Virus record (IMG/VR): IMGVR_UViG_2718218453_000006
Strand: one strand, 5' to 3'
From: a virus
Lineage: Duplodnaviria > Heunggongvirae > Uroviricota > Caudoviricetes
DNA length: 44,044 nucleotides
Shown here: positions 2,519-42,676 of the stretch, one piece after another
Position numbering within the stretch: the first letter of the stretch is position 1
Layout: each line of letters opens with the position of its first letter
Position numbers and translations under genes: made by a program
The notes under the pieces: model-generated
The model's input: the letters and a program-made list of their open reading frames with translations, nothing else
What the model was told of the DNA's origin: nothing
Databases searched by the model: none

Positions 2519-2853
2519 TATAAGAATCCACTTCTAATTCAAAGCATTACCCCATCAACACTGCGCTCACACGTCCCACCACATCAAAACATGTAAAGCC
2601 TTGCAAGCCATTGCGAGGCCTTATGTGTCTCAGTTTTGTCCCACCTTGTATTACGACTTGCATAGCCAATGAAGATAAACGTGACGACAAACGGCGCAGC
2701 AGTCTTCTTTTCCTTCATACTTTCCCCACCCAGCATGCATACCTTCTACCATAACTGTAGTGAATGTCTGTTATGAGCGAAAATCGGAAGTTAGTGTCCT
2801 CATAATTTTGATAGAATGTTCGAACTTTTCCTTTCTAAGAAACTTGAGAAGTT

Positions 2854-3285
2854 ATGAAAAAATCACTCGTGCTAGTTATGTTTCTTTTCTCAGCTTGTGT
2901 TACTGCGAGTAATGACCTAGATCTATATGATAATCAAGGCAACGCCGTCGTTTATATTTCACTTGATGACGAGTTGACTTTATATAGTTGGGAGGGTGAA
3001 CCAAGCGCCTACCTTAAACATAACCAGAACAATGAGTTTGATGTTTATGGATTCAATGGGAATCATTTAGGCTGGTTTACTAATGGTATGTTGATTGATC
3101 ACGATGGCTATGTTGCCTGTGCAGTAAAAGACATGGTTACCACACCTAATTTGCCATCACTTAAATCACTTAAGAGCCTCAAGCCTCTAAAATCGCTAAC
3201 GGAACTTCCCCCTCTTTTCCCGCTGCTAAAAAATGCCTTTGGTCAGACAAATTGTTCTTTGTTAGTAGCTTCAGGTGTTGCATAA
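2854..3285 (+). CDS. putative secreted protein or lipoprotein with C-terminal SLK/PLK repeats (143 aa)
   Basis: N-terminal signal peptide with Cys (MKKSLVLVMFLFSAC), tandem peptide repeat PSLKSLKSLKPLKSL. Confidence 0.45.
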   Translation: MKKSLVLVMFLFSACVTASNDLDLYDNQGNAVVYISLDDELTLYSWEGEPSAYLKHNQNNEFDVYGFNGNHLGWFTNGMLIDHDGYVACAVKDMVTTPNLPSLKSLKSLKPLKSLTELPPLFPLLKNAFGQTNCSLLVASGVA

Positions 3286-3661
3286 ATCCACAACGGATGC
3301 ATTTCTTGAAAGGGATGCCCCTCCAGAGGATAAAATGCTTACGGTATCCGCTCCTGACACGGAGCGGACCAATCAGGTGGTTGTAAGGTCCGCTATGAGC
3401 AAGAAGCGGAAGTTGGCAGTTTTGTGGACTGTCCCCACAAAAGTGACTACAGAAATAGTTGCAATTCATAATTGATCATGGGTTGTCAGTTAAACTCGTG
3501 GCGATTTAAATAGACTAATTGGGAGTGCGTCCATTACTTATATCTTGTAATGTTAACTATCAGAAATGATACAAAGATAATATGTCTTTAAAGAAAAGAC
3601 TGATGGCGAAAAGTGGCCCGATGAGGGCCACTGATCCTACCCACGTAATATGGACACAGGC

Positions 3662-4528
3662 CTAAGCGAGGTTCTTGTTTTCAAATTGTTCCGGACTGAG
3701 GCCGCCACACCAACTGTGCCGCCGCCACCGATTGTAATCACATTCGATATAATTAAACACCGTTGCCCGCATTATTTCCCGGCTGATAAAGTGTTCTCCA
3801 TGGATACATTCCACTTTCAGCGAATGAAAGAAGCTTTCCACGCAGGCATTATCGTAGCAGCAACCTTTTGCGCTCATACTTCCACGCAGATTATGCCGCT
3901 TCAGTTGCGCCTGATAATCTGCTGAACAGTACTGGCCTCCACGGTCCGTGTGAACGATAACGTTCCGGGGCCTCGTACGCCGCCATAGCGCCATCTGCAG
4001 GGCATCGCAGGCCAGTTGCGCCGTCATGCGTGGCGACATTGACCAGCCAATAACGGCACGTGACCACAGGTCAATGACCACTGCCAGATACAGCCAGCCT
4101 TCATCTGTACGTAAGTACGTGATGTCTCCTGCCCACTTCTGGTTCGGGCCACTGGCGTAAAAATCCTGCTCCAACAGATTTTCTGACACAGGCAGGCCGT
4201 GTGCGCGGTAGCTGACCGGGCTGAACTTCCGGGAGGCCTTTGCCCTCAGTCCCTGACGGCGCAGGCTTGCCGCCACGGTTTTTACGTTAAAGGGGTAACC
4301 CTGAGCACGCAGTTCATCCGTCAGGCGTGGGGCACCGTAACGCTGTTTTGACCGGGTAAAAGCCGCGAGGACAACGCTGTCGCAGTGTTGGCGGAACTGC
4401 TGACGCGTGCTTATCCTTGTCCGCCGCTGACACCACGTATACCAGCCGCTGCGGGCCACCCGGAGCACGCGGCACATTGCTTTGATGCTGAACTCAGCCT
4501 GATGTTTTTCAATAAAGACATACTTCAT
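3662..4528 (-). CDS. insF: IS3 transposase OrfB (DDE integrase domain)
   Basis: 288-aa ORF matching IS3 OrfB as recalled from memory, with DDE catalytic region (HTDRGGQY...). Confidence 0.9.
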
Positions 4529-4833
4529 TTCAGGCGCTTCGCGAAGTATGTCGCGGCCTTTTGGAGGATAGCCAGCTCTTCATCCCGTTCTGCCAGCTGG
4601 CGTTTGAGACGTGCAATCTCGGTAGACATCTCCAGTTCACGTTCAGAAGACGTCTGCTGATTTTGCTGTTTACTGCGCCAGTTGTAGAGCTGTGATTCAT
4701 ACAGGCTGAGTTCACGGGCTGCGGCAGTAACACCGATGCGTTCAGCAAGCTTCAGGGCTTCACTGCGAAATTCAGGCGAATGCTGTTTACGGGGTTTTTT
4801 ACTGGTTGATACTGTTTTTGTCATGTGAGTCAC
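4525..4833 (-). CDS. insE: IS3 transposase OrfA (HTH)
   Basis: 102-aa ORF matching IS3 OrfA as recalled from memory; overlaps OrfB in the frameshift configuration. Confidence 0.9.
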
Positions 4834-4906
4834 CTCTGACTGAGAGTTTACTCACTTAGCCGCGTGTCCACTATTGCTGGGTAAGATCACACAATACGGC
4901 TGTCAC

Positions 4907-5239
4907 TTAGACGTAAATATCAATGGTGCCAGCGGTATTTGTATCGTCTTTTTTCTCTTCTTTTTTATCAGGATGAACTGTCGCGTCTTCATTCTTTTTC
5001 TCTGCCTGCTGCCTTAACAACTGCTCCAGTTGAGCCCTGAGGCTTTCAATTTGCTTCTGTACCAATGCAGCCATTTCTTTTTTCTGCTGTGTCGTCATCC
5101 CCTCTTCCGATGAGATTTTCCCAAGCTTTTCAGTCAGCACCTGAATTTGTCTTGTGATTTTGGCTATTTCTGATGTTCCTTCCGGGGCGGAGTTGTTTGA
5201 AATAACGGTTGAGGTATTTCCCTGAATTGTGACAGACAT
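4907..5239 (-). CDS. flxA: FlxA-like protein (110 aa, coiled-coil)
   Basis: Sequence MSVTIQGNTSTVISNNSAPEGTSEIAKITRQ... recalled as E. coli FlxA; strong RBS (AGGAGA); preceded by a sigma-28-type promoter. Confidence 0.6.
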   Translation of the reverse strand: MSVTIQGNTSTVISNNSAPEGTSEIAKITRQIQVLTEKLGKISSEEGMTTQQKKEMAALVQKQIESLRAQLEQLLRQQAEKKNEDATVHPDKKEEKKDDTNTAGTIDIYV

Positions 5240-5262
5240 AGATTTCTCCTTTTAAAAAAGCA

Positions 5263-5289
5263 CTATCGGCATGCACAAAAAAATCTTTA
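5263..5289 (-). promoter_or_regulatory. sigma-28 (FliA) class promoter upstream of the flxA-like gene
   Basis: On the minus strand TAAAGATT-N11-GCCGATAG against consensus TAAAGTTT-N11-GCCGATAA, about 25 bp upstream of the start codon. Confidence 0.55.
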
Positions 5290-6034
5290 ATCGTATTTCT
5301 TGTGTCATTAATTGTTTGATGTTCAGATTGTTTTCCTCGCGGGCTGGCGCGCCTCAGAAAGTAAAGCTTGTTGACAGGGGTAAACGTTCGGCAATAATTT
5401 TCTGCCGCATGCGGGTGTTGCATAAAACGTGCTACGTTCCTTTATCGACAGGTCAGGTCACCGCTCACCCGCCGACGAGAAAGCAACACTGACATGCTAA
5501 AGCAAAAAATAGATGAATAAGTTGAGTTGTGCATATGTAGCCTGACCGTCACAAAGTATATGGTGTCTGTACCAGTAAGATGGTGGCCGGACTCTTTAAA
5601 AACGAGCTGACCTGCACAATACAGGATGGACTTAGCAATGGCTGCTCCTGGCACATAGCAGCCCTAGAGACAGTGGCGTAAAGTCATGGAGGGTCGGTGG
5701 CAGGAGATGCAAATCCTCTCATACAAAAATACGTAAAATCAATAACGGCTAGAAATCATTCAATACTCGCACTATCTAACATTTACCAGCCAACCGCAGC
5801 ACGTCTTGCATACGACCTGTCTGCGGTTTCAATCACCTCTCACCACCAGTCCCATCAATAATAATTAAACAGCGCCTAAACAAAATAAATAACAACAAGT
5901 CAACAACCTCGACAGGATGCCGATGGGATGATGAAGAGATAAGAAAGAATAACTAGTAAAGCCCTAAAACGTCAGCGTTCAGACGCGTTTTTTACTTAAC
6001 CGGTAACAAATACGTTGTATCATAGCAACATAAA

Positions 6035-7984
6035 ATGATTGTTCTAAATCAGATTAACTCCTCACTTTTGTACAATGTCGCTTACAGGTATACCATGAAA
6101 TCCGAGACGCTAACTGTCCAACAACTTTTTCAAGACCGCCGACAATACTGCGTTCCATTCTATCAACGTGCCTATGTATGGACTCAGCGAAACCAATGGT
6201 CAGCTCTACTGGAGGATATCCTAGAGAAAGCACAATCCCGGCTCTCGGGTACAAAACCAACTCCCCATTTCCTTGGTGCAGTGGTACTGGAACCTCAACC
6301 AAAAAAAGGATTATTAGGTGTAGATTCCATACATATTATTGATGGTCAGCAACGATTGACCACTCTTCAATATGTTCTGGCATCCATCCGATTAGCATTA
6401 CGTGCGACAGATCTTTCCAACTTAGGGCCTCTCATTTCGTCTTGCCTGAAAAACTCAAACGAAGACACAATGCGAAATAAAGAAGTAGAGCGCTTCAAAC
6501 TGTGGCCAACTTTTCGGGATCAAACTCATTTTATTCAAAGTTTTAATGTTGAAAATATTGACGATATCCGGAATGTATTCTCTGATAGTTTCACGCAGCA
6601 TGGTACGTTGCGTAAGCATTTTAATCACCCGCCATCACTAGAAGCATTATGTTTTTTTACTGAAGCCTTTATAAAGTGGATTAAAATAGAAAATCACTCA
6701 CCACGAGAAAATGCTGTAGCATTAATTGAGGCTGTCTTGACGGATCTGAAACTAGTAAGCATATTTCTCGAGGCTGAAGATGACGCTCAAATAATTTTTG
6801 AAACATTAAATGGCAGAGGTGCGGAACTTCATGCCACAGATCTTATTCGCAATTATATTTTTATGTGCGCTGAACATGAAAATATTAATGCTGTTGAATT
6901 ATATGAGAATGAGTGGAAGATCTTTGAAGATACGTACTGGTCAGAAAGACAACGTCGTGGTCGTATTAATAAACCACGCATGGAGTGGCTAGTGCATGCG
7001 ACATTGCAATCAGAAAGGCAACGTGAAATCGATCTGTCTCGTCTTTACAATGAGTATCGTGATTATGTAAGTAAGGACTTGCCTTCACAACGAGCAGATC
7101 TGCAAGTAAAGCGCCTCAAACAATATGCATCACAATATAAAGAATTGGTTGGTGGTTTTGGCACAACCCCCATCTCACACTTTGGACATCGCATCGCAGC
7201 CTATGATGTGACGACACTTTATCCGCTTGCTTTGTTCATTTCGATAGCTAACATCGCCGATGATGAGAAAGCAGCCATGTATAATGATCTTGTCTCCTAC
7301 GTAGTACGAAGAGCCGTATGTGGCCTGACGCCAAAGAATTACAACAATGTATTTATGAATGTATTGCGGCACTTGTCTAAAACGGAAATTTCCAGTGTTG
7401 AGTTACGTAATATCCTCAATAGCTTAAATGGCGAAGCCTCACGTTGGCCTGGGGACTCAGAATTTCTCAACGCTTGCATCAATGCTCCACTTTATCCTGG
7501 CAGGCTCGACGCACCGAAAATGCGCTCAATGTTAACGGAACTTGAAAGAGAACTTTGTCGCCAAGTGAAGACAGAGAAGCCTGATGTTCCAAATCTTTCT
7601 AACCTCGATATCGATCATCTTATGCCTCAAAGTTGGTATTCCTGTTGGCCTCTCGAAAATGGTCATATGGTGACAAATTCAGATGCTACGGTATTGAACC
7701 AAATTGTTCTGTCTGGAACCGATCTTACCCCTGAACAGCTACTGGTAAGGAAACGGCAACAAGCGATAGCTACGTTGGGAAATCTAACTTTGCTTAACCT
7801 TAGCGTAAACCGTTCTGTTCAGAATGCTGTATTTCTGAAAAAACGTGATGCTCTCATCGTCCACACCAATCTACGACTGAACATTCCACTTATAGTTAAG
7901 GATAAATGGGATGAGGATGAAATCCTGGAGCGGGGTAAAAAGTTGGGGGAAATTGCATTGAAAGTATGGCCAAAACACGATTAA
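6035..7984 (+). CDS. DUF262/DUF1524 fusion protein (GmrSD-like; candidate modification-dependent type IV restriction or defence nuclease); start may be the Met at 6095
   Basis: N-terminal ParB-like DUF262 motif (IIDGQQRLTTL); C-terminal His-Me/HNH-like DUF1524 motif (DIDHLMPQSW); 649 aa. Confidence 0.8.
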   Translation: MIVLNQINSSLLYNVAYRYTMKSETLTVQQLFQDRRQYCVPFYQRAYVWTQRNQWSALLEDILEKAQSRLSGTKPTPHFLGAVVLEPQPKKGLLGVDSIHIIDGQQRLTTLQYVLASIRLALRATDLSNLGPLISSCLKNSNEDTMRNKEVERFKLWPTFRDQTHFIQSFNVENIDDIRNVFSDSFTQHGTLRKHFNHPPSLEALCFFTEAFIKWIKIENHSPRENAVALIEAVLTDLKLVSIFLEAEDDAQIIFETLNGRGAELHATDLIRNYIFMCAEHENINAVELYENEWKIFEDTYWSERQRRGRINKPRMEWLVHATLQSERQREIDLSRLYNEYRDYVSKDLPSQRADLQVKRLKQYASQYKELVGGFGTTPISHFGHRIAAYDVTTLYPLALFISIANIADDEKAAMYNDLVSYVVRRAVCGLTPKNYNNVFMNVLRHLSKTEISSVELRNILNSLNGEASRWPGDSEFLNACINAPLYPGRLDAPKMRSMLTELERELCRQVKTEKPDVPNLSNLDIDHLMPQSWYSCWPLENGHMVTNSDATVLNQIVLSGTDLTPEQLLVRKRQQAIATLGNLTLLNLSVNRSVQNAVFLKKRDALIVHTNLRLNIPLIVKDKWDEDEILERGKKLGEIALKVWPKHD

Positions 7985-8079
7985 TGCAATTAATAAAATG
8001 ATTATAGCGGCTTTACATTAGTAAGGCCGCTACTCACTATTAAATCCTTTAATTTGCAACAAGAACAGCAGTGTCAGCC

Positions 8080-8208
8080 CTAGGTTTCGGACTTTGTACC
8101 GCTTATCTTGTCTTCAAAAATCAGCTCGCATCCTGCACAGCTCAACGCATTACGTTGTAGATCGGTGTTCTGGTCATTTGTTGATACGCGTACATAGCCA
8201 ATAAGCAT
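8080..8208 (-). pseudogene. 5' remnant of a Pin/Gin/Hin-family serine DNA invertase (42 codons then stop)
   Basis: Minus-strand translation MLIGYVRVSTNDQNTDLQRNALSCAGCELIFEDKISGTKSE then TAG; matches the invertase N-terminus including the catalytic Ser region; RBS GGGGGAG present; rest of the gene absent. Confidence 0.8.
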
Positions 8209-8263
8209 GGTAGCTCCCCCTGACAAAAGCAGGAATGATGCCATTTGCTCGTTATTTCTGCAT

Positions 8264-8289
8264 CTTCATAAACGTTGGTTTGGGAGAAG
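8264..8289. repeat. gix/hix-like recombination site (one arm of the inverted repeat flanking the invertible tail-fibre segment)
   Basis: cttcataaacgttggtttgggagaag is near-identical to the reverse complement of 10058-10083; resembles hix/gix core AAACC..GGTTT. Confidence 0.6.
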
Positions 8290-8609
8290 CGGCAAAACGG
8301 AATGTGGGAACTGGGGAAAATCAGATACCTGATATGTCATCATATGCATCAGGTTCAGGCTGGCGAAAAATGCCAGATGGTTCAATTGAACAGTGGGGAC
8401 GAATTAGTTTTCCTAGTGAACACGGGCCTGTATCCGCCAATGTTTCATTCCCGATTCCATTTACACAGACACCGGGCATTGTAATTGTGTGCGATGGTGG
8501 TTTCGGGGGTGGGAATATGTGGGGGGCGACCAACTGGAGCACTACCGGCTTCATAGCTCACTGCAATTATGGTCTTGAAGGTGGTGCGTTTTTCGCTAAG
8601 GGCTGGTAA
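8264..8609 (+). CDS. alternative tail-fibre C-terminal cassette (Sv'), currently not joined to the constant N-terminus
   Basis: Plus-strand ORF begins at the gix-like site with NVGLGE, mirroring NLGLGD in the expressed fibre; followed by its own tfa. Confidence 0.5.
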
Positions 8610-9052
8610 TGATGAAATATCTGTACGTAAACAACCTGGCATATCCTTACGAACTTAAGTCTCTTTATGTTGAAAAAGGTGAGTGGCCTGAAGAAAAAGG
8701 TGTTGATATAGACGAAGTAATTTTCAGGGAATATTTCTATGATACACCACCAGAAGGAAAATACAGATGTGTCGGAGAAGATGGACTGCCTGCATGGGTA
8801 GATATTCCTCCACCAACACGTGAAGAACAAATTGCATCAGCCGAAACTAAAAAGCAGCAATTGATTAATCAGGCCAACGAATACATCAACAGTAAACAAT
8901 GGCCAGGTAAAGCATCAATTGGTCGTCTGAAAGGTGAGGAACTGGTGCAATATAATTTGTGGCTGGATTATCTGGACGCACTGGAACTGGTTGATACCTC
9001 CAGTGCTCCAGATATTGAATGGCCTACGCCTCCGGCAGTTCAGGCCAGATGA
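8609..9052 (+). CDS. tail fibre assembly protein (alternative, Tfa')
   Basis: 147-aa ORF with the conserved Tfa C-terminus ([27 protein letters not shown]). Confidence 0.7.
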   Translation: MMKYLYVNNLAYPYELKSLYVEKGEWPEEKGVDIDEVIFREYFYDTPPEGKYRCVGEDGLPAWVDIPPPTREEQIASAETKKQQLINQANEYINSKQWPGKASIGRLKGEELVQYNLWLDYLDALELVDTSSAPDIEWPTPPAVQAR

Positions 9053-9458
9053 CATCCGGCGCAGTGCTGGTATCTGTTGCCGTCACCGCGTCAATGTAAT
9101 CCAGCACGGCGTTAAGTCGGGTGGTTTCTGCCTGCGTCAGCTTCCGCCCGGCCTGCAGCTTTAACTGAATCACGCTGATATTGACCATTGCTGCGTCTAT
9201 CAACGACTGTTTTTTCTGTTCAGCGTCAGCTACCAGTTCATCATGAGAACGTTCCGGAGGGAGCGGCGCAGTAAATACCCCGTCTGAATACGCCCAGCCG
9301 ATTCCGGGCTGCTCACTGATATCAGAAATATTAATGAGCTGCAGATTATCCGGCACAGTGAATTCATCCTCGCCATCCCAGACAATGACATTCACAACCA
9401 TCCCATTTTCAATAACTGCATATGACGCATTCATTATGCAAACTCCTCGATAATACAA
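9024..9458 (-). CDS. tail fibre assembly protein (Tfa)
   Basis: 144-aa ORF, C-terminal [28 protein letters not shown]; directly downstream of the tail-fibre gene. Confidence 0.8.
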
Positions 9459-10360
9459 ACCCCATCAGCACCTTTCCCGCCCGTCATACTGGTTCCGCTA
9501 TAACCTGCATCGTATGCACCACCTCCGCCTGAACCAAATGCCCTGCCTCTAACGCCACCGCCAGCGCCTGCACGTCCACCGCCTCCCCAGTACGATGCAC
9601 CGCCTTCACCGCTGACGCTGATATTCCCGGACTGACCGTCGCCTCCATCTCCACCAGTGATGCGGATATCGCCAATATTCGGTACGCCTCCGTTACCGCC
9701 GTTTGTGTTTGTGACTCCTACTTTTCCGCCGCCTTCACCACCAGGGGCTATTACCGATCCGAACGAGCTATCACCGCCCTTGAGGCCGTTCGTCGCACCA
9801 ACGCCGCCGGCCCCACCTGCGCCGATAGTGACAGGATAACTATTCTGTGTCGGGGTCAGTATGGTGATTACTGTCCCTCCGGCCCCACCGCCAGCACCGA
9901 AAAACGTTTCGTTACTGGATATAGCCTGGCAGCCACCCCCTCCGCCACCGCCGCCCGTTATTGTGACCCTGATCCGTTTTGTTTCTGGTGATGGGGTATA
10001 CGTACCTGATGACGCGAAAGCCCGGGTACTCAGCCGGCGTCCCACGTATCCGCTTGTATCTCCCAAACCAAGGTTTTGAAGAGCCGTTTTCACCGTGCCG
10101 TCCGATTTGATATCGCCAAACGGATTTTTGCGACTTAACAGCAGCGCACGAAGCGCGGTAAGCAGCTGGTCATGCCGCCCCTTCTCCAGGCTGGCACCGG
10201 ATGCCTCCACCACGCTGCAGAGCTCCTCCTGCAACATGTCAAAGTAGTCATCATCCAGATCGGTGGCAGGCGTGCCGGTCTGGGGGTTACCACGGGTAAA
10301 ACCGTTCTTACCCGCGCCGAACTTATCCTTCTGCGCGGTTTTCGTGTCTATACGATGCAT
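9434..10360 (-). CDS. tail fibre protein (glycine-rich, Mu S-like), currently expressed orientation
   Basis: 308-aa ORF with poly-Gly tracts; constant N-terminus (10085-10360) joined to a variable part inside the invertible segment. Confidence 0.8.
10058..10083. repeat. gix/hix-like recombination site inside the tail-fibre gene (second arm of the inverted repeat)
   Basis: Minus-strand ctcttcaaaaccttggtttgggagat; matches hix/gix-type TTC..AAAACC..GGTTT core. Confidence 0.6.
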
Positions 10361-27336: not shown

Positions 27337-27687
27337 TCACTTCAACCGTTCACGGGCCGTCTTCGCCTTATGACACGGCCAGCACAGACTCTGCAGATTA
27401 CAGTCGGCATCAGTGCCGCCATGCGCTTTAGGGATGATGTGGTCAACGGTTTTCGCTTCACGCACCACACCGGCACGCAGACATAACTGACATAAACCTT
27501 TGTCACGTTTCAGTACACGTTCACGGATAGCATCCCATTTCGAACCGTAGCCGCGCTGATGACGGGATTGTCCTGGCTTGTATTGCTTCCAGCCTTCGCT
27601 TTTGTGGCTTTCGCAGTAGCCTGACGGGTCAGTAGTGGTATGGCGGCAGCCGCGAACGCGGCAGGATTTTGGGATTCGTGGTGGCAT
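27337..27687 (-). CDS. HNH endonuclease (packaging-associated)
   Basis: Cys-rich zinc-finger and HNH motif (DHIIPKAHGGTDADCNLQSLCWPCH). Confidence 0.85.
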   Translation of the reverse strand: MPPRIPKSCRVRGCRHTTTDPSGYCESHKSEGWKQYKPGQSRHQRGYGSKWDAIRERVLKRDKGLCQLCLRAGVVREAKTVDHIIPKAHGGTDADCNLQSLCWPCHKAKTARERLK

Positions 27688-29916: not shown

Positions 29917-30231
29917 TTAAACACCTAACGCCCGACGCCCCAGCGCCATTGCTGCTTTTATTGTGGAACCGAATCCCATAAAGAAATCAGCAACCAGATC
30001 ACCAGGTCGACTACTGGCATTGATTATTTGCCTGAGCATATCCGCCGGTTTCTCGCACGGATGTTTACCCGGGTAGAACTGAACGGGCTTATGCGTCCTG
30101 ACATCGGTATAAGGCACGGAGACTGATACGGAGAAATAGCGCCGGTGAGATTTAAACTCATCCAGCAATTCAGACGATTTGCAATTCAGTGAATCATGAG
30201 ATACCACCAACTGGTGGTAGGATTGTCTCAA
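29917..30231 (-). pseudogene. fragment of a beta-class N4/N6 DNA methyltransferase (C-terminal motif I region only)
   Basis: HPCEKP...GDLVADFFMGFGSTIKAAMALGRRALG matches the AdoMet-binding DPFxGSGTT region; no DPPY catalytic motif and only 104 aa. Confidence 0.6.
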
Positions 30232-34589: not shown

Positions 34590-34912
34590 ACTTTCAGGCC
34601 CCTCTCATGTAACCAGTGGGCTGCACGCAGCCTGGCGTTTTCCTCACCGGCAAGCAGTGAGCGGATAATCCCGACCGCCTCGCTGTCGTCGTCCTTCACC
34701 GCGGTATGAAGCGTTATCCCCCGGGCCACGCCACGCTTTATCGTGATGACGCCTTTTTTCTCCAGCACACGAAGATGCTCCACCGCTGCATTCACCGAAC
34801 GGTATCCCAGCATGGTTGCCACCTCCTGATTGGTTGGCGGGAAACCACGTTCTTTCTGATAAGAAATCAGCATATCCAGCACCTGCTGCTGGCATTGAGT
34901 TAACGTCGTCAT
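34586..34912 (-). CDS. LexA-like N-terminal winged-helix DNA-binding protein (no peptidase domain)
   Basis: LTQCQQQVLDMLISYQKERGFPPTNQEVATMLGYRSVNAAVEHLRVLEKKGVI resembles the LexA DNA-binding domain; 108 aa. Confidence 0.55.
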   Translation of the reverse strand: MTTLTQCQQQVLDMLISYQKERGFPPTNQEVATMLGYRSVNAAVEHLRVLEKKGVITIKRGVARGITLHTAVKDDDSEAVGIIRSLLAGEENARLRAAHWLHERGLKV

Positions 34913-35595
34913 GCCGCCATCTCCCTGACCAGTTTTTCCGCCTGCTGACGAACCTGCTCCAGAAACGCCTCACCACATGCCTCAAGTTCATCGCGCCCGA
35001 TGTAGCTGATTGCCGGTCCCTTCCAGGTCTTGTCGAAAACAGCAATAGCACCAGCGAAGAAAGCGCCTGTCGGCACCTGCTTCTCATCCTTCGGGATAAA
35101 CCAGGCAGGCAGTTCAAAACCAATACGCCCGCGAATAAAAGCAATATGATCTGCATCTTCCGGCCACCACACTTCGCTGGTGGCAGCTTTGATCAGGAAA
35201 ACATAGCGCCCGCCCTTATCACGCATGGCACTGGCATGTTTCATGATGTAACGCATGCCGGTGATGTATTGCCCCTCATGCTGACTGGCGCGGCTGTATG
35301 GGGGATTACCAAAGGCAGCACCTTTAAGCTCCGCAAGACGTTCTGACCAGTCATGCGCCAGCGCGTTGTCTTCCGCCGTGTAATACGCGGCACATTTGGC
35401 GTTATCACCGTCAGTAAAAAGATCCAGAACAAACGGGCCAAACAGAGTGTTAATTCCCCAGAAAATGTTATCCGGCGTGCGCCACTGATCGCCCACTTCC
35501 TTCAGTTCATGGGCTGGTTTGTTCCGTAGTTCCACCAGCGCCTGGCAATATTTATTACTCATTAAGCCCCCACGTAATTCCCTGACAGATACCAC
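34909..35595 (-). CDS. phage-type N6-adenine DNA methyltransferase (orphan, Dam-like)
   Basis: Catalytic NPPY motif (FGNPPYS) and upstream WRTP...LD motif; no adjacent restriction endonuclease. Confidence 0.8.
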   Translation of the reverse strand: MVSVRELRGGLMSNKYCQALVELRNKPAHELKEVGDQWRTPDNIFWGINTLFGPFVLDLFTDGDNAKCAAYYTAEDNALAHDWSERLAELKGAAFGNPPYSRASQHEGQYITGMRYIMKHASAMRDKGGRYVFLIKAATSEVWWPEDADHIAFIRGRIGFELPAWFIPKDEKQVPTGAFFAGAIAVFDKTWKGPAISYIGRDELEACGEAFLEQVRQQAEKLVREMAA

Positions 35596-41196: not shown

Positions 41197-41546
41197 TGGA
41201 GCCATACAGCCTCACACTCGATGAGGCCTGTCATTTTCTCAAGATATCCAGACCGACTGCCATTAACTGGATACGCACAGGGCGTCTTCAGGCAACACGC
41301 AAAGATCCCACTAAGAATAAATCTCCTTACCTCACAACACGACAAGCCTGCATTGCGGCTCTTCAGTCTCCGCTGCATACTGTCCAGGTGAGCGCGGGTG
41401 ATGGCATAACAGAGGAAAGAAAATGTCACTCTTCCGCAGAGGTGAAATATGGTACGCCAGTTTCACATTGCCGAACGGTAAAAGATTTAAACAGTCTCTT
41501 GGAACAAAGGACAAAAGGCAGGCGACAGAACTCCATGACAAGCTAA
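41196..41546 (+). CDS. xis: excisionase (P22/Sf-type Xis)
   Basis: 116-aa HTH protein ([30 protein letters not shown]) immediately upstream of and overlapping int. Confidence 0.75.
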
Positions 41547-42586
41547 AGGCTGAAGCATGGCGGGTCAGCAAACTTGGTGAAATACCTGATATAACGTTCG
41601 AGGAAGCGTGTGTCAGGTGGCTTGAAGAGAAAGCACATAAAAAATCACTGGACGATGACAAAAGCCGGATCGGATTCTGGCTTCAACATTTCGCAGGAAT
41701 GCAACTAAGAGACATTACTGAATCAAAAATTTATTCAGCAATGCAGAAAATGACGAACCGGCGTCATGAGGAAAACTGGAGACTCAGGGCAGAAGCATGC
41801 AGAAAAAAAGGGAAACCTGTTCCAGAATACACGCCAAAACCAGCGTCCGTTGCAACGAAGGCTACGCATCTTTCATTTATAAAGGCCCTACTAAGAGCCG
41901 CAGAGCGTGAATGGAAAATGCTGGATAAGGCACCAATTATTAAAGTGCCTCAACCAAAGAATAAACGGATCCGCTGGCTGGAGCCCCATGAAGCACAAAG
42001 GCTGATTGATGAATGTCCGGAGCCATTAAAGTCTGTTGTTGAATTTGCACTGGCAACAGGCTTAAGACGCTCGAACATCATCAACCTTGAATGGCAACAA
42101 ATAGACATGCAGCGCCGGGTGGCATGGATAAACCCGGAAGAGAGTAAATCAAACCGCGCAATTGGCGTTGCGCTGAATGATACTGCATGTCGCGTTTTGA
42201 AAAAACAAATCGGGAATCATCACCGTTGGGTATTTGTGTACAAGGAAAGCTGTACCAAACCAGACGGAACGAAAGCGCCAACAGTAAGGAAGATGCGGTA
42301 TGACGCAAACACAGCCTGGAAAGCGGCGCTGAGACGGGCTGGTATTGATGATTTCAGATTTCACGACTTGAGACACACCTGGGCAAGTTGGCTGGTTCAA
42401 GCCGGAGTCCCGTTGTCAGTGTTACAGGAAATGGGAGGCTGGGAGTCTATCGAAATGGTTCGTCGATATGCTCACCTTGCACCTAATCACCTTACCGAAC
42501 ACGCACGGCAAATAGACTCGATCCTGAACCCATCGGTCCCAAATTTGTCCCAGTCAAAAAATAAGGAAGGTACTAATGATGTGTAA
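41423..42586 (+). CDS. int: tyrosine integrase, P22/Sf-phage type (thrW-specific)
   Basis: 387-aa ORF near-identical to the P22 Int sequence as recalled; catalytic RHTWAS...Y region; ends 14 bp from the thrW 3' end. Confidence 0.95.
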
Positions 42587-42600
42587 CTTATTGATTTAAA

Positions 42601-42676
42601 TGGTGCCGATAATAGGAGTCGAACCTACGACCTTCGCATTACGAATGCGCTGCTCTACCAACTGAGCTATATCGGC
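42601..42676 (-). tRNA. thrW: tRNA-Thr (anticodon CGU)
   Basis: 76-nt cloverleaf GCCGATATAGCTCAGTTGGTAGAGCAGCGCATTCGTAATGCG...GGTTCGACTCC...CCA on the minus strand. Confidence 0.95.

Follow-up and report, generated by a model that had tools for sequence, protein, structure and literature searches.

An apparently intact allele of the Type IV restriction gene gmrSD within a disrupted tail-fibre invertase gene of an Escherichia coli prophage

Single-chain enzymes of the GmrSD type protect Escherichia coli against phages with modified DNA. Cleavage that depends on hydroxymethylcytosine (hmC) or glucosylated hmC (glc-hmC) and is stimulated by nucleoside triphosphates (NTPs), along with restriction of T-even phages, has been demonstrated experimentally for Eco94GmrSD and CT596 GmrSD; enzymes of this type are active alone once cloned. 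Eco94GmrSD is 629 amino acids (aa) long, and mutagenesis identified its catalytic residues D507, H508 and N522 as essential (He et al. 2015, PMC4437046). The injected T4 inhibitor IPI* counters GmrSD of the CT type, while the UT type is insensitive. The gene was placed downstream of tail-fibre genes on a prophage by He et al. 2015 (PMC4437046), and the enzyme, its prophage location and the neighbouring invertase have all been published (PMC4437046; Machnicka et al. 2015, PMC4619093), with the passage in Machnicka et al. 2015 (PMC4619093) that deals with the gmrSD setting citing Bair & Black 2007. Here we describe a gene of this family in a 44,044-nt stretch of DNA, IMG/VR record IMGVR_UViG_2718218453_000006, referred to below in its whole length as the window. 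Judging from sequence comparison, we put at roughly 93% the probability that window positions 6095–7984 are an intact allele of GmrSD, a single-chain Type IV enzyme, situated in a partly replaced copy of the tail-fibre invertase gene pin.

An earlier note on the window had placed a 649-aa DUF262/DUF1524 protein within a truncated invertase gene. The features of this locus, with the grounds for each assignment in brackets, are as follows.

5644–5831, minus strand: remnant of the pinE downstream flank, with stop codon at 5829–5831 and a terminator-like hairpin (homology to sibling prophages).
5832–8084, plus strand: gmrSD cassette of 2253 bp, made up of 263 bp upstream, the gene and 100 bp downstream (homology to siblings with intact pinE).
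5996–6023, plus strand: sigma-70 promoter-like site, TTAACC, 16 nt, TATCAT (consensus match).
6095–7984, plus strand: gmrSD coding sequence, most likely 629 aa plus stop (Pfam, PADLOC, RefSeq, motifs, alignment to characterised enzymes).
8005–8032, plus strand: hairpin with a 12-bp stem and no U-tract (repeat scan, fold z = -2.8).
8086–8208, minus strand: what is left of pin (pin'), namely the 5' 41 codons of a serine invertase of the Pin/Gin type, MLIGYVRVSTNDQ... (Pfam, RefSeq, alignment).

The open reading frame (ORF) and both domains proposed earlier stand, but the length does not. As listed for the window, the ORF spans 6035–7984 on the plus strand and would encode 649 aa; the true start is most likely the ATG at 6095, which gives 629 aa. 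RefSeq places the start of WP_032193087.1 at that codon, 629 aa is also the length of the characterised homologues, and in the defence-annotation check the PADLOC Type IV model mREase_IV aligned end to end (1438 bits, model positions 1–629 of 629) with ORF residues 21–649. In addition, the Eco94-type allele has a 10-nt indel in the stretch that separates the two ATGs, so that its upstream ATG is out of frame. Translation from the ATG at 6035 is rejected on these four grounds. RefSeq still names the product "DUF262 domain-containing protein".

The Pfam search gave strong matches to both domains: GmrSD_N/DUF262 (PF03235, E = 5e-34) at aa 28–276 of the 649-aa ORF, over the full profile (1–199), and GmrSD_C/DUF1524 (PF07510, E = 5e-20) at aa 471–639. 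The two motifs noticed earlier are likewise present. In the 629-aa numbering used from here on, DGQQR occupies residues 83–87, in the N-terminal DUF262 domain (GmrS, ParB/Srx-like and NTPase-like), and DIDHLMPQS residues 505–513, in the C-terminal DUF1524 domain (GmrD), a His-Me (HNH-type) nuclease. The (D/E/H)HxxP pattern with a downstream Asn is found as D507-H508-L-M-P and N522, and the two domains are fused in one chain through a connector of about 84 aa, colinear with the prototype. No NCBIfam model matches the protein. A phmmer search of PDB chains (up to E = 10) returned the DUF262 protein 9jfl_B as the sole match (E = 1e-7), BrxU and SspE being too distant from the gmrSD protein for this method.

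Comparison with the sequences of EcoCT596GmrSD, Eco94GmrSD and UTI89 GmrSD in supplementary Fig. S1 of He et al. 2015 (PMC4437046) places the window protein squarely among the characterised enzymes. It differs from UTI89 GmrSD at 23 of 629 positions (96.3% identity) and from Eco94GmrSD and EcoCT596GmrSD at 37 of 629 each (94.1%), in every case without indels. Since it is colinear with these proteins and 94–96% identical to them, it is to be regarded as an allele of the family's founding member; the family assignment made in the earlier note is borne out by Pfam, PADLOC and these identities, but its label "GmrSD-like" understates the relationship. Residues D507, H508, C517, N522, N528, N535, E271, E273 and E278 are all kept. 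Ten residues are unique to the window allele (69, 109, 111, 112, 116, 158, 204, 267, 280 and 285), and codon 280 (window 6932–6934) specifies Thr where Eco94, CT596 and UTI89 all have Lys280.

The resemblance extends to the genomic settings. The UTI89 protein (UTI89_C2960, the "UT enzyme", WP_000834402.1) is colinear with the window protein and has 629 aa too, and its cassette, left and right pin junctions and kind of prophage (SfII/e14-like) are all as in the window; the UTI89 prophage, however, is integrated at ssrA and that of the window at thrW, and the two alleles differ mainly in codons 136–300; the window allele also has K280T and a distinct patch at 109–116. Eco94GmrSD (ECSTEC94C_1402) and EcoCT596GmrSD lie, like the window gene, downstream of prophage tail-fibre genes, and their 37 substitutions relative to the window allele are concentrated in the N-terminal 135 residues. 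In the Eco94-type prophage that we examined, the gmrSD-pin' junction matches that of the window, but the gene copy there is at the icd (e14) site and has no pin 3' flank upstream of it. BrxU, which gave the GmrSD family its first structure and is, according to the BrxU paper, about 13% identical to Eco94GmrSD, has the DUF262 plus DUF1524 architecture and the DGQQR and DHxxP motifs in common with the window protein; unlike the chromosomal prophage gene, it is borne on a plasmid (pEFER) within a BREX locus.

The borders of the cassette were mapped against the thrW prophages of strains CH423 and B2, which carry an intact pinE of 555 bp. Homology to these siblings ends at 5831 and restarts at 8085, so that the breakpoints are 5831/5832 and 8084/8085, the latter having been put at about 8085 in the earlier note. 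In the alignment with pinE of CH423 and B2, identity sets in 123 nt into the gene, at window 8085, and genomes with intact pinE show homology to the window from 8085 to the right only. At the left border, window 5644–5831 is 87% identical to strain B2, and 5792–5831 is 90% identical to CH423. Given that pinE homology is found on both sides, the 2253-bp cassette took the place of 428 bp of pinE, namely codons 42–183. What is left of the 5' part is a short ORF at 8080–8244 on the minus strand that begins with a typical serine-invertase N-terminus (MLIGYVRVSTNDQ) and covers positions 2–47 of the 145 in Pfam Resolvase. The 42 codons counted earlier at 8080–8208 thus resolve into 41 homologous codons and one foreign codon, followed by a stop at 8080–8082. 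A full invertase has a complete resolvase catalytic domain and a C-terminal helix-turn-helix (about 184 aa), and pin' falls short of this; RefSeq annotates 8086–8208 as a recombinase pseudogene without its C-terminus. The hairpin at 8005–8032 lies directly 3' of the gmrSD stop, between the convergent gmrSD and pin'. It has no T-run and was not called by an intrinsic-terminator scan, whose sole called site is within pin'.

One could envision that gmrSD came in as ordinary cargo distal to pin, in the manner of mcrA in e14, and that the 3' part of pin was lost by a later deletion. Such a course would suit the icd Eco94-type prophage, where no pin 3' flank is present beyond gmrSD. It would also suit the cassette borders, where we found neither a target-site duplication nor terminal inverted repeats or transposon-like ends, and short repeats only at chance level. 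However, in both the window and UTI89 the pin stop codon and downstream flank stand to the left of the cassette, an arrangement that simple deletion cannot explain and that calls for replacement of the pin interior. Moreover, the right junction is the same at each of the three kinds of site examined, which makes a secondary loss of the left flank the simpler account of the icd form. Later deletion is thus an unlikely origin of the arrangement, if not a negligible one.

These junction comparisons involve one prophage per site: thrW (the window), ssrA (UTI89) and icd (CFSAN061769). The gmrSD-pin' junction is identical in the three. GmrSD of the UTI89 prophage is the published UT enzyme (0 differences), and that of CFSAN061769, at the e14 site, differs from Eco94GmrSD at 3 residues. 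The left pin flank is kept in UTI89 and absent from the icd form, in which the whole interval from the icd' fragment to pin codon 41 has been replaced, that is, the segment corresponding to K-12 mcrA and most of pinE. The earlier analogy with mcrA of e14 is thereby made literal, this sibling having gmrSD-pin' in place of the mcrA-pinE of K-12. As the junction is shared between thrW, ssrA and icd, the simplest reading of the sequences would be a single old replacement event, followed by spread through recombination between prophages.

Among 5426 complete E. coli genomes, 322 carry the cassette, all of them on the chromosome: at 99% identity or more in 85, at 95–99% in 154 and at 90–95% in 83. 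Between the gmrSD allele classes dN/dS is 0.12–0.17, and this purifying selection indicates that the gene has been kept by selection. Synonymous divergence is uneven along the gene. Relative to the Eco94 type, dS is 0.89 in codons 1–135 and about 0.05 in codons 301–629, and a comparison of the window/UT type with the CT type likewise gives 0.88 in codons 1–135 and about 0.05 in the C-terminal half; relative to UTI89, it is 0.30 in codons 136–300 only and about 0.04–0.08 elsewhere. This pattern implies that the alleles are recombinant mosaics, most divergent in the N-terminal DUF262 domain, and such exchange of N-terminal domains is in keeping with an arms race against inhibitors of the T4 IPI* kind.

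Several caveats attach to the view that this is a working enzyme. The window allele carries K280T, at a residue altered in the E278A/K280A double mutant of Eco94GmrSD, which is inactive or weak. Of the characterised enzymes the nearest to it, that of UTI89, showed no activity in vitro after purification under any of the conditions tried, and it is the strain UTI89, in vivo, and not the cloned gene that is credited with restricting some other T-even phages (PMC4437046). A single-sequence AlphaFold2 model of the 629-aa protein is poor (mean pLDDT 34.5, pTM 0.19), and the gmrSD promoter is assigned by consensus match alone, although the -10 hexamer of the site is kept in all three allele classes. 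One might conclude from K280T and the inactive UTI89 enzyme that GmrSD is here a decaying, non-functional relic, passively carried in a defective prophage. The UTI89 prophage could indeed not be induced (PMC4437046), a few genomes have insertion sequences (IS) within gmrSD, and no record in a phage-isolate collection (50,697 records) contains the cassette, matches there being limited to the pin and tail-fibre parts. Against this, the 629-codon frame is uninterrupted, with no catalytic or motif residue lost; dN/dS is low; the identical protein occurs on hundreds of contigs and the cassette, at 99% identity or more, in the 85 complete genomes mentioned above; and the gene is surrounded by a full set of prophage genes (terminase, portal, capsid, sheath, tube, baseplate, lysis, regulatory functions and integrase). 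Decay of this kind appears very improbable to us. Least credible of all is that the protein belongs to a multi-gene system (SspE-type phosphorothioate sensing, BrxU-type BREX-associated or Dnd-associated): PADLOC does give matches to the SspE, Orf5 and HEC-06 models, but these score 30–260 bits as opposed to 1438 bits for the Type IV model, the neighbourhood is devoid of ssp, dnd or BREX genes, and near-identical enzymes act alone when cloned.

If the intact allele behaves like Eco94GmrSD, EcoCT596GmrSD and the UTI89 enzyme, a plausible course of events can be outlined. GmrSD would be expressed from the resident prophage and would recognise incoming DNA containing 5-hydroxymethylcytosine (5hmC) or glucosyl-5hmC, as in T-even phages. 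The DUF1524 His-Me nuclease (D507/H508/N522) would cleave the modified DNA, with the ParB/Srx-like DUF262 domain (DGQQR) providing for stimulation by NTP; BrxU serves as the mechanistic model, and its structure suggests that NTP binding may drive cycling between a dimer and a monomer. T-even phages would thereby be excluded. The substrate, the NTP stimulation and the restriction of phages are ascribed to the window allele on the strength of published work on near-identical proteins. As for its origin, gmrSD most likely arrived as a 2.25-kb cassette that displaced codons 42–183 of the prophage's Pin-type tail-fibre invertase.

The prophage itself is a complete e14/SfII-like element of 40 kb with a Mu-type tail, integrated at thrW beside proA, which in K-12 is the site of CP4-6. 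Its genes were annotated from E. coli strain 127, which is 100% identical to the window. Beyond the gmrSD locus, the features that matter here are the following.

2472–2518: attachment site (att) copy, duplicating 47 bp from the 3' part of tRNA-Thr (thrW), at the cargo-side prophage end (repeat search; also in sibling prophages).
2519–5643: rest of the cargo region, from att to the pin flank (ORFs, Pfam, RefSeq, as for the next four).
2854–3285, plus strand: gene for a 4-fold beta flower protein, secreted.
3662–4833, minus strand: IS3, transposase.
4907–5239, minus strand: flxA, Qin-type.
5442–5657, minus strand: ydfV pseudogene, Qin-type.
8270–10076: invertible tail-fibre segment with 18-nt inverted crossover sites at 8270–8287 and 10059–10076 (inverted repeat).
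41423–42586: integrase, adjoining the tRNA-Thr att (annotation).
42600–42646: att copy inside the intact tRNA-Thr(CGU) gene (47-bp direct repeat).
42601–42676, minus strand: tRNA-Thr(CGU) (annotation).

Within this element gmrSD occupies the cargo end, with the tail-fibre switch on one side and att on the other. PADLOC gave no match among the other cargo genes at 2854–5657. We considered whether flxA and ydfV' might belong to a separate Qin-like prophage outside the element, but the att repeat at 2472–2518 puts both inside the thrW-bounded element. In strain ET474, an IS1 at about window position 5224 replaces flxA. To the left of the att repeat are AT-rich island remnants (GC 0.29–0.33 at 1–1000), which suggest that several elements are arranged in tandem at thrW. 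In the strain 127 annotation, an N6-adenine methyltransferase and a truncated DNA methyltransferase pseudogene correspond to window 29917–30231 and 34909–35595, and an HNH endonuclease (27337–27687) adjoins the small terminase subunit.

Sibling prophages differ in what they carry in the slot between att and pin. The thrW siblings keep the att-proximal 310 bp or so, the pin flank and the tail-fibre switch, while the cargo varies: strain CH423 has PD-T4-3, a GIY-YIG protein, and strain B2 has the FRG-domain protein PDC-S15 together with two unassigned ORFs. The cargo end in UTI89 holds PD-T4-3, an Aga-like protein with a restriction endonuclease (REase) domain and gmrSD, and e14 of K-12 has McrA between pinE and att. 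The genes in the sibling stretches are located as follows.

L003 7739–8512; L005 2059–2847 and 3439–4212; L004 4475–5845: sibling cargo genes (PD-T4-3, Aga-like REase, PDC-S15).

Constant flanks around differing anti-phage cargo confirm that the att-pin slot is a defence hotspot in e14/SfII-like prophages, as the earlier note had supposed when it spoke of swapped cargo. McrA is likewise a Type IV modification-dependent nuclease, and in this prophage family it occupies the same end, between invertase and att, but the protein (HNH, specific for 5-methylcytosine and 5hmC) is unrelated to GmrSD. The alignments also refine the hotspot: McrA sits beyond an intact pinE, whereas gmrSD sits inside pin, not beyond it, and destroys it. 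We note that two genes directed against T-even phages, PD-T4-3 and gmrSD, are neighbours in UTI89.

Loss of the invertase bears on the adjacent switch, the invertible segment at 8270–10076 with its alternative C-termini for the tail fibre and its tail-fibre assembly genes. In strain ET474 this segment is flipped (L007 7026–8839), although the flanks are 99.9% identical and include the same dead pin'. Inversion must then have been catalysed in trans, presumably by the Pin-type invertase of another prophage. That PinQ acts in trans on the P segment of e14 has been shown experimentally (PMC12529663). The first 41 pin codons are kept in every GmrSD-carrying prophage that we examined. Systems of the Gin, Hin and Cin type have their Fis-dependent recombinational enhancer within the 5' end of the gene for the invertase or close to it; the 65-bp enhancer of Hin is separated from a hix site by about 100 bp. 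Scanning pin' with a degenerate Fis motif yielded one palindromic match, at 8124–8138, too weak to count as evidence.

We attach little weight to the locus as a discovery, GmrSD being a textbook Type IV enzyme whose prophage location has been reported since 2007–2015. The gmrSD feature is already known, and truncation of the invertase and its breakpoints are a detail of a known arrangement, even if our literature search found no paper on either. What is gained is a correct annotation, breakpoints to the base pair, the recognition that the interior of pin was replaced, and the finding of the same junction at three integration sites (one prophage each). Two small leads may interest specialists in phage defence, namely the exchange of the N-terminal domain and inversion of the switch despite a dead invertase. 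It is tempting, if quite speculative, to combine them and propose both that pin' persists for more than reasons of shared ancestry, retaining cis elements for flipping by foreign invertases, and that the mosaic window allele represents a third class of specificity or inhibitor sensitivity; we regard the joint proposal as doubtful but worth stating. If it were true, the prophage would rely on co-resident prophages for its host-range switch, having ceded its own invertase gene to a defence gene.

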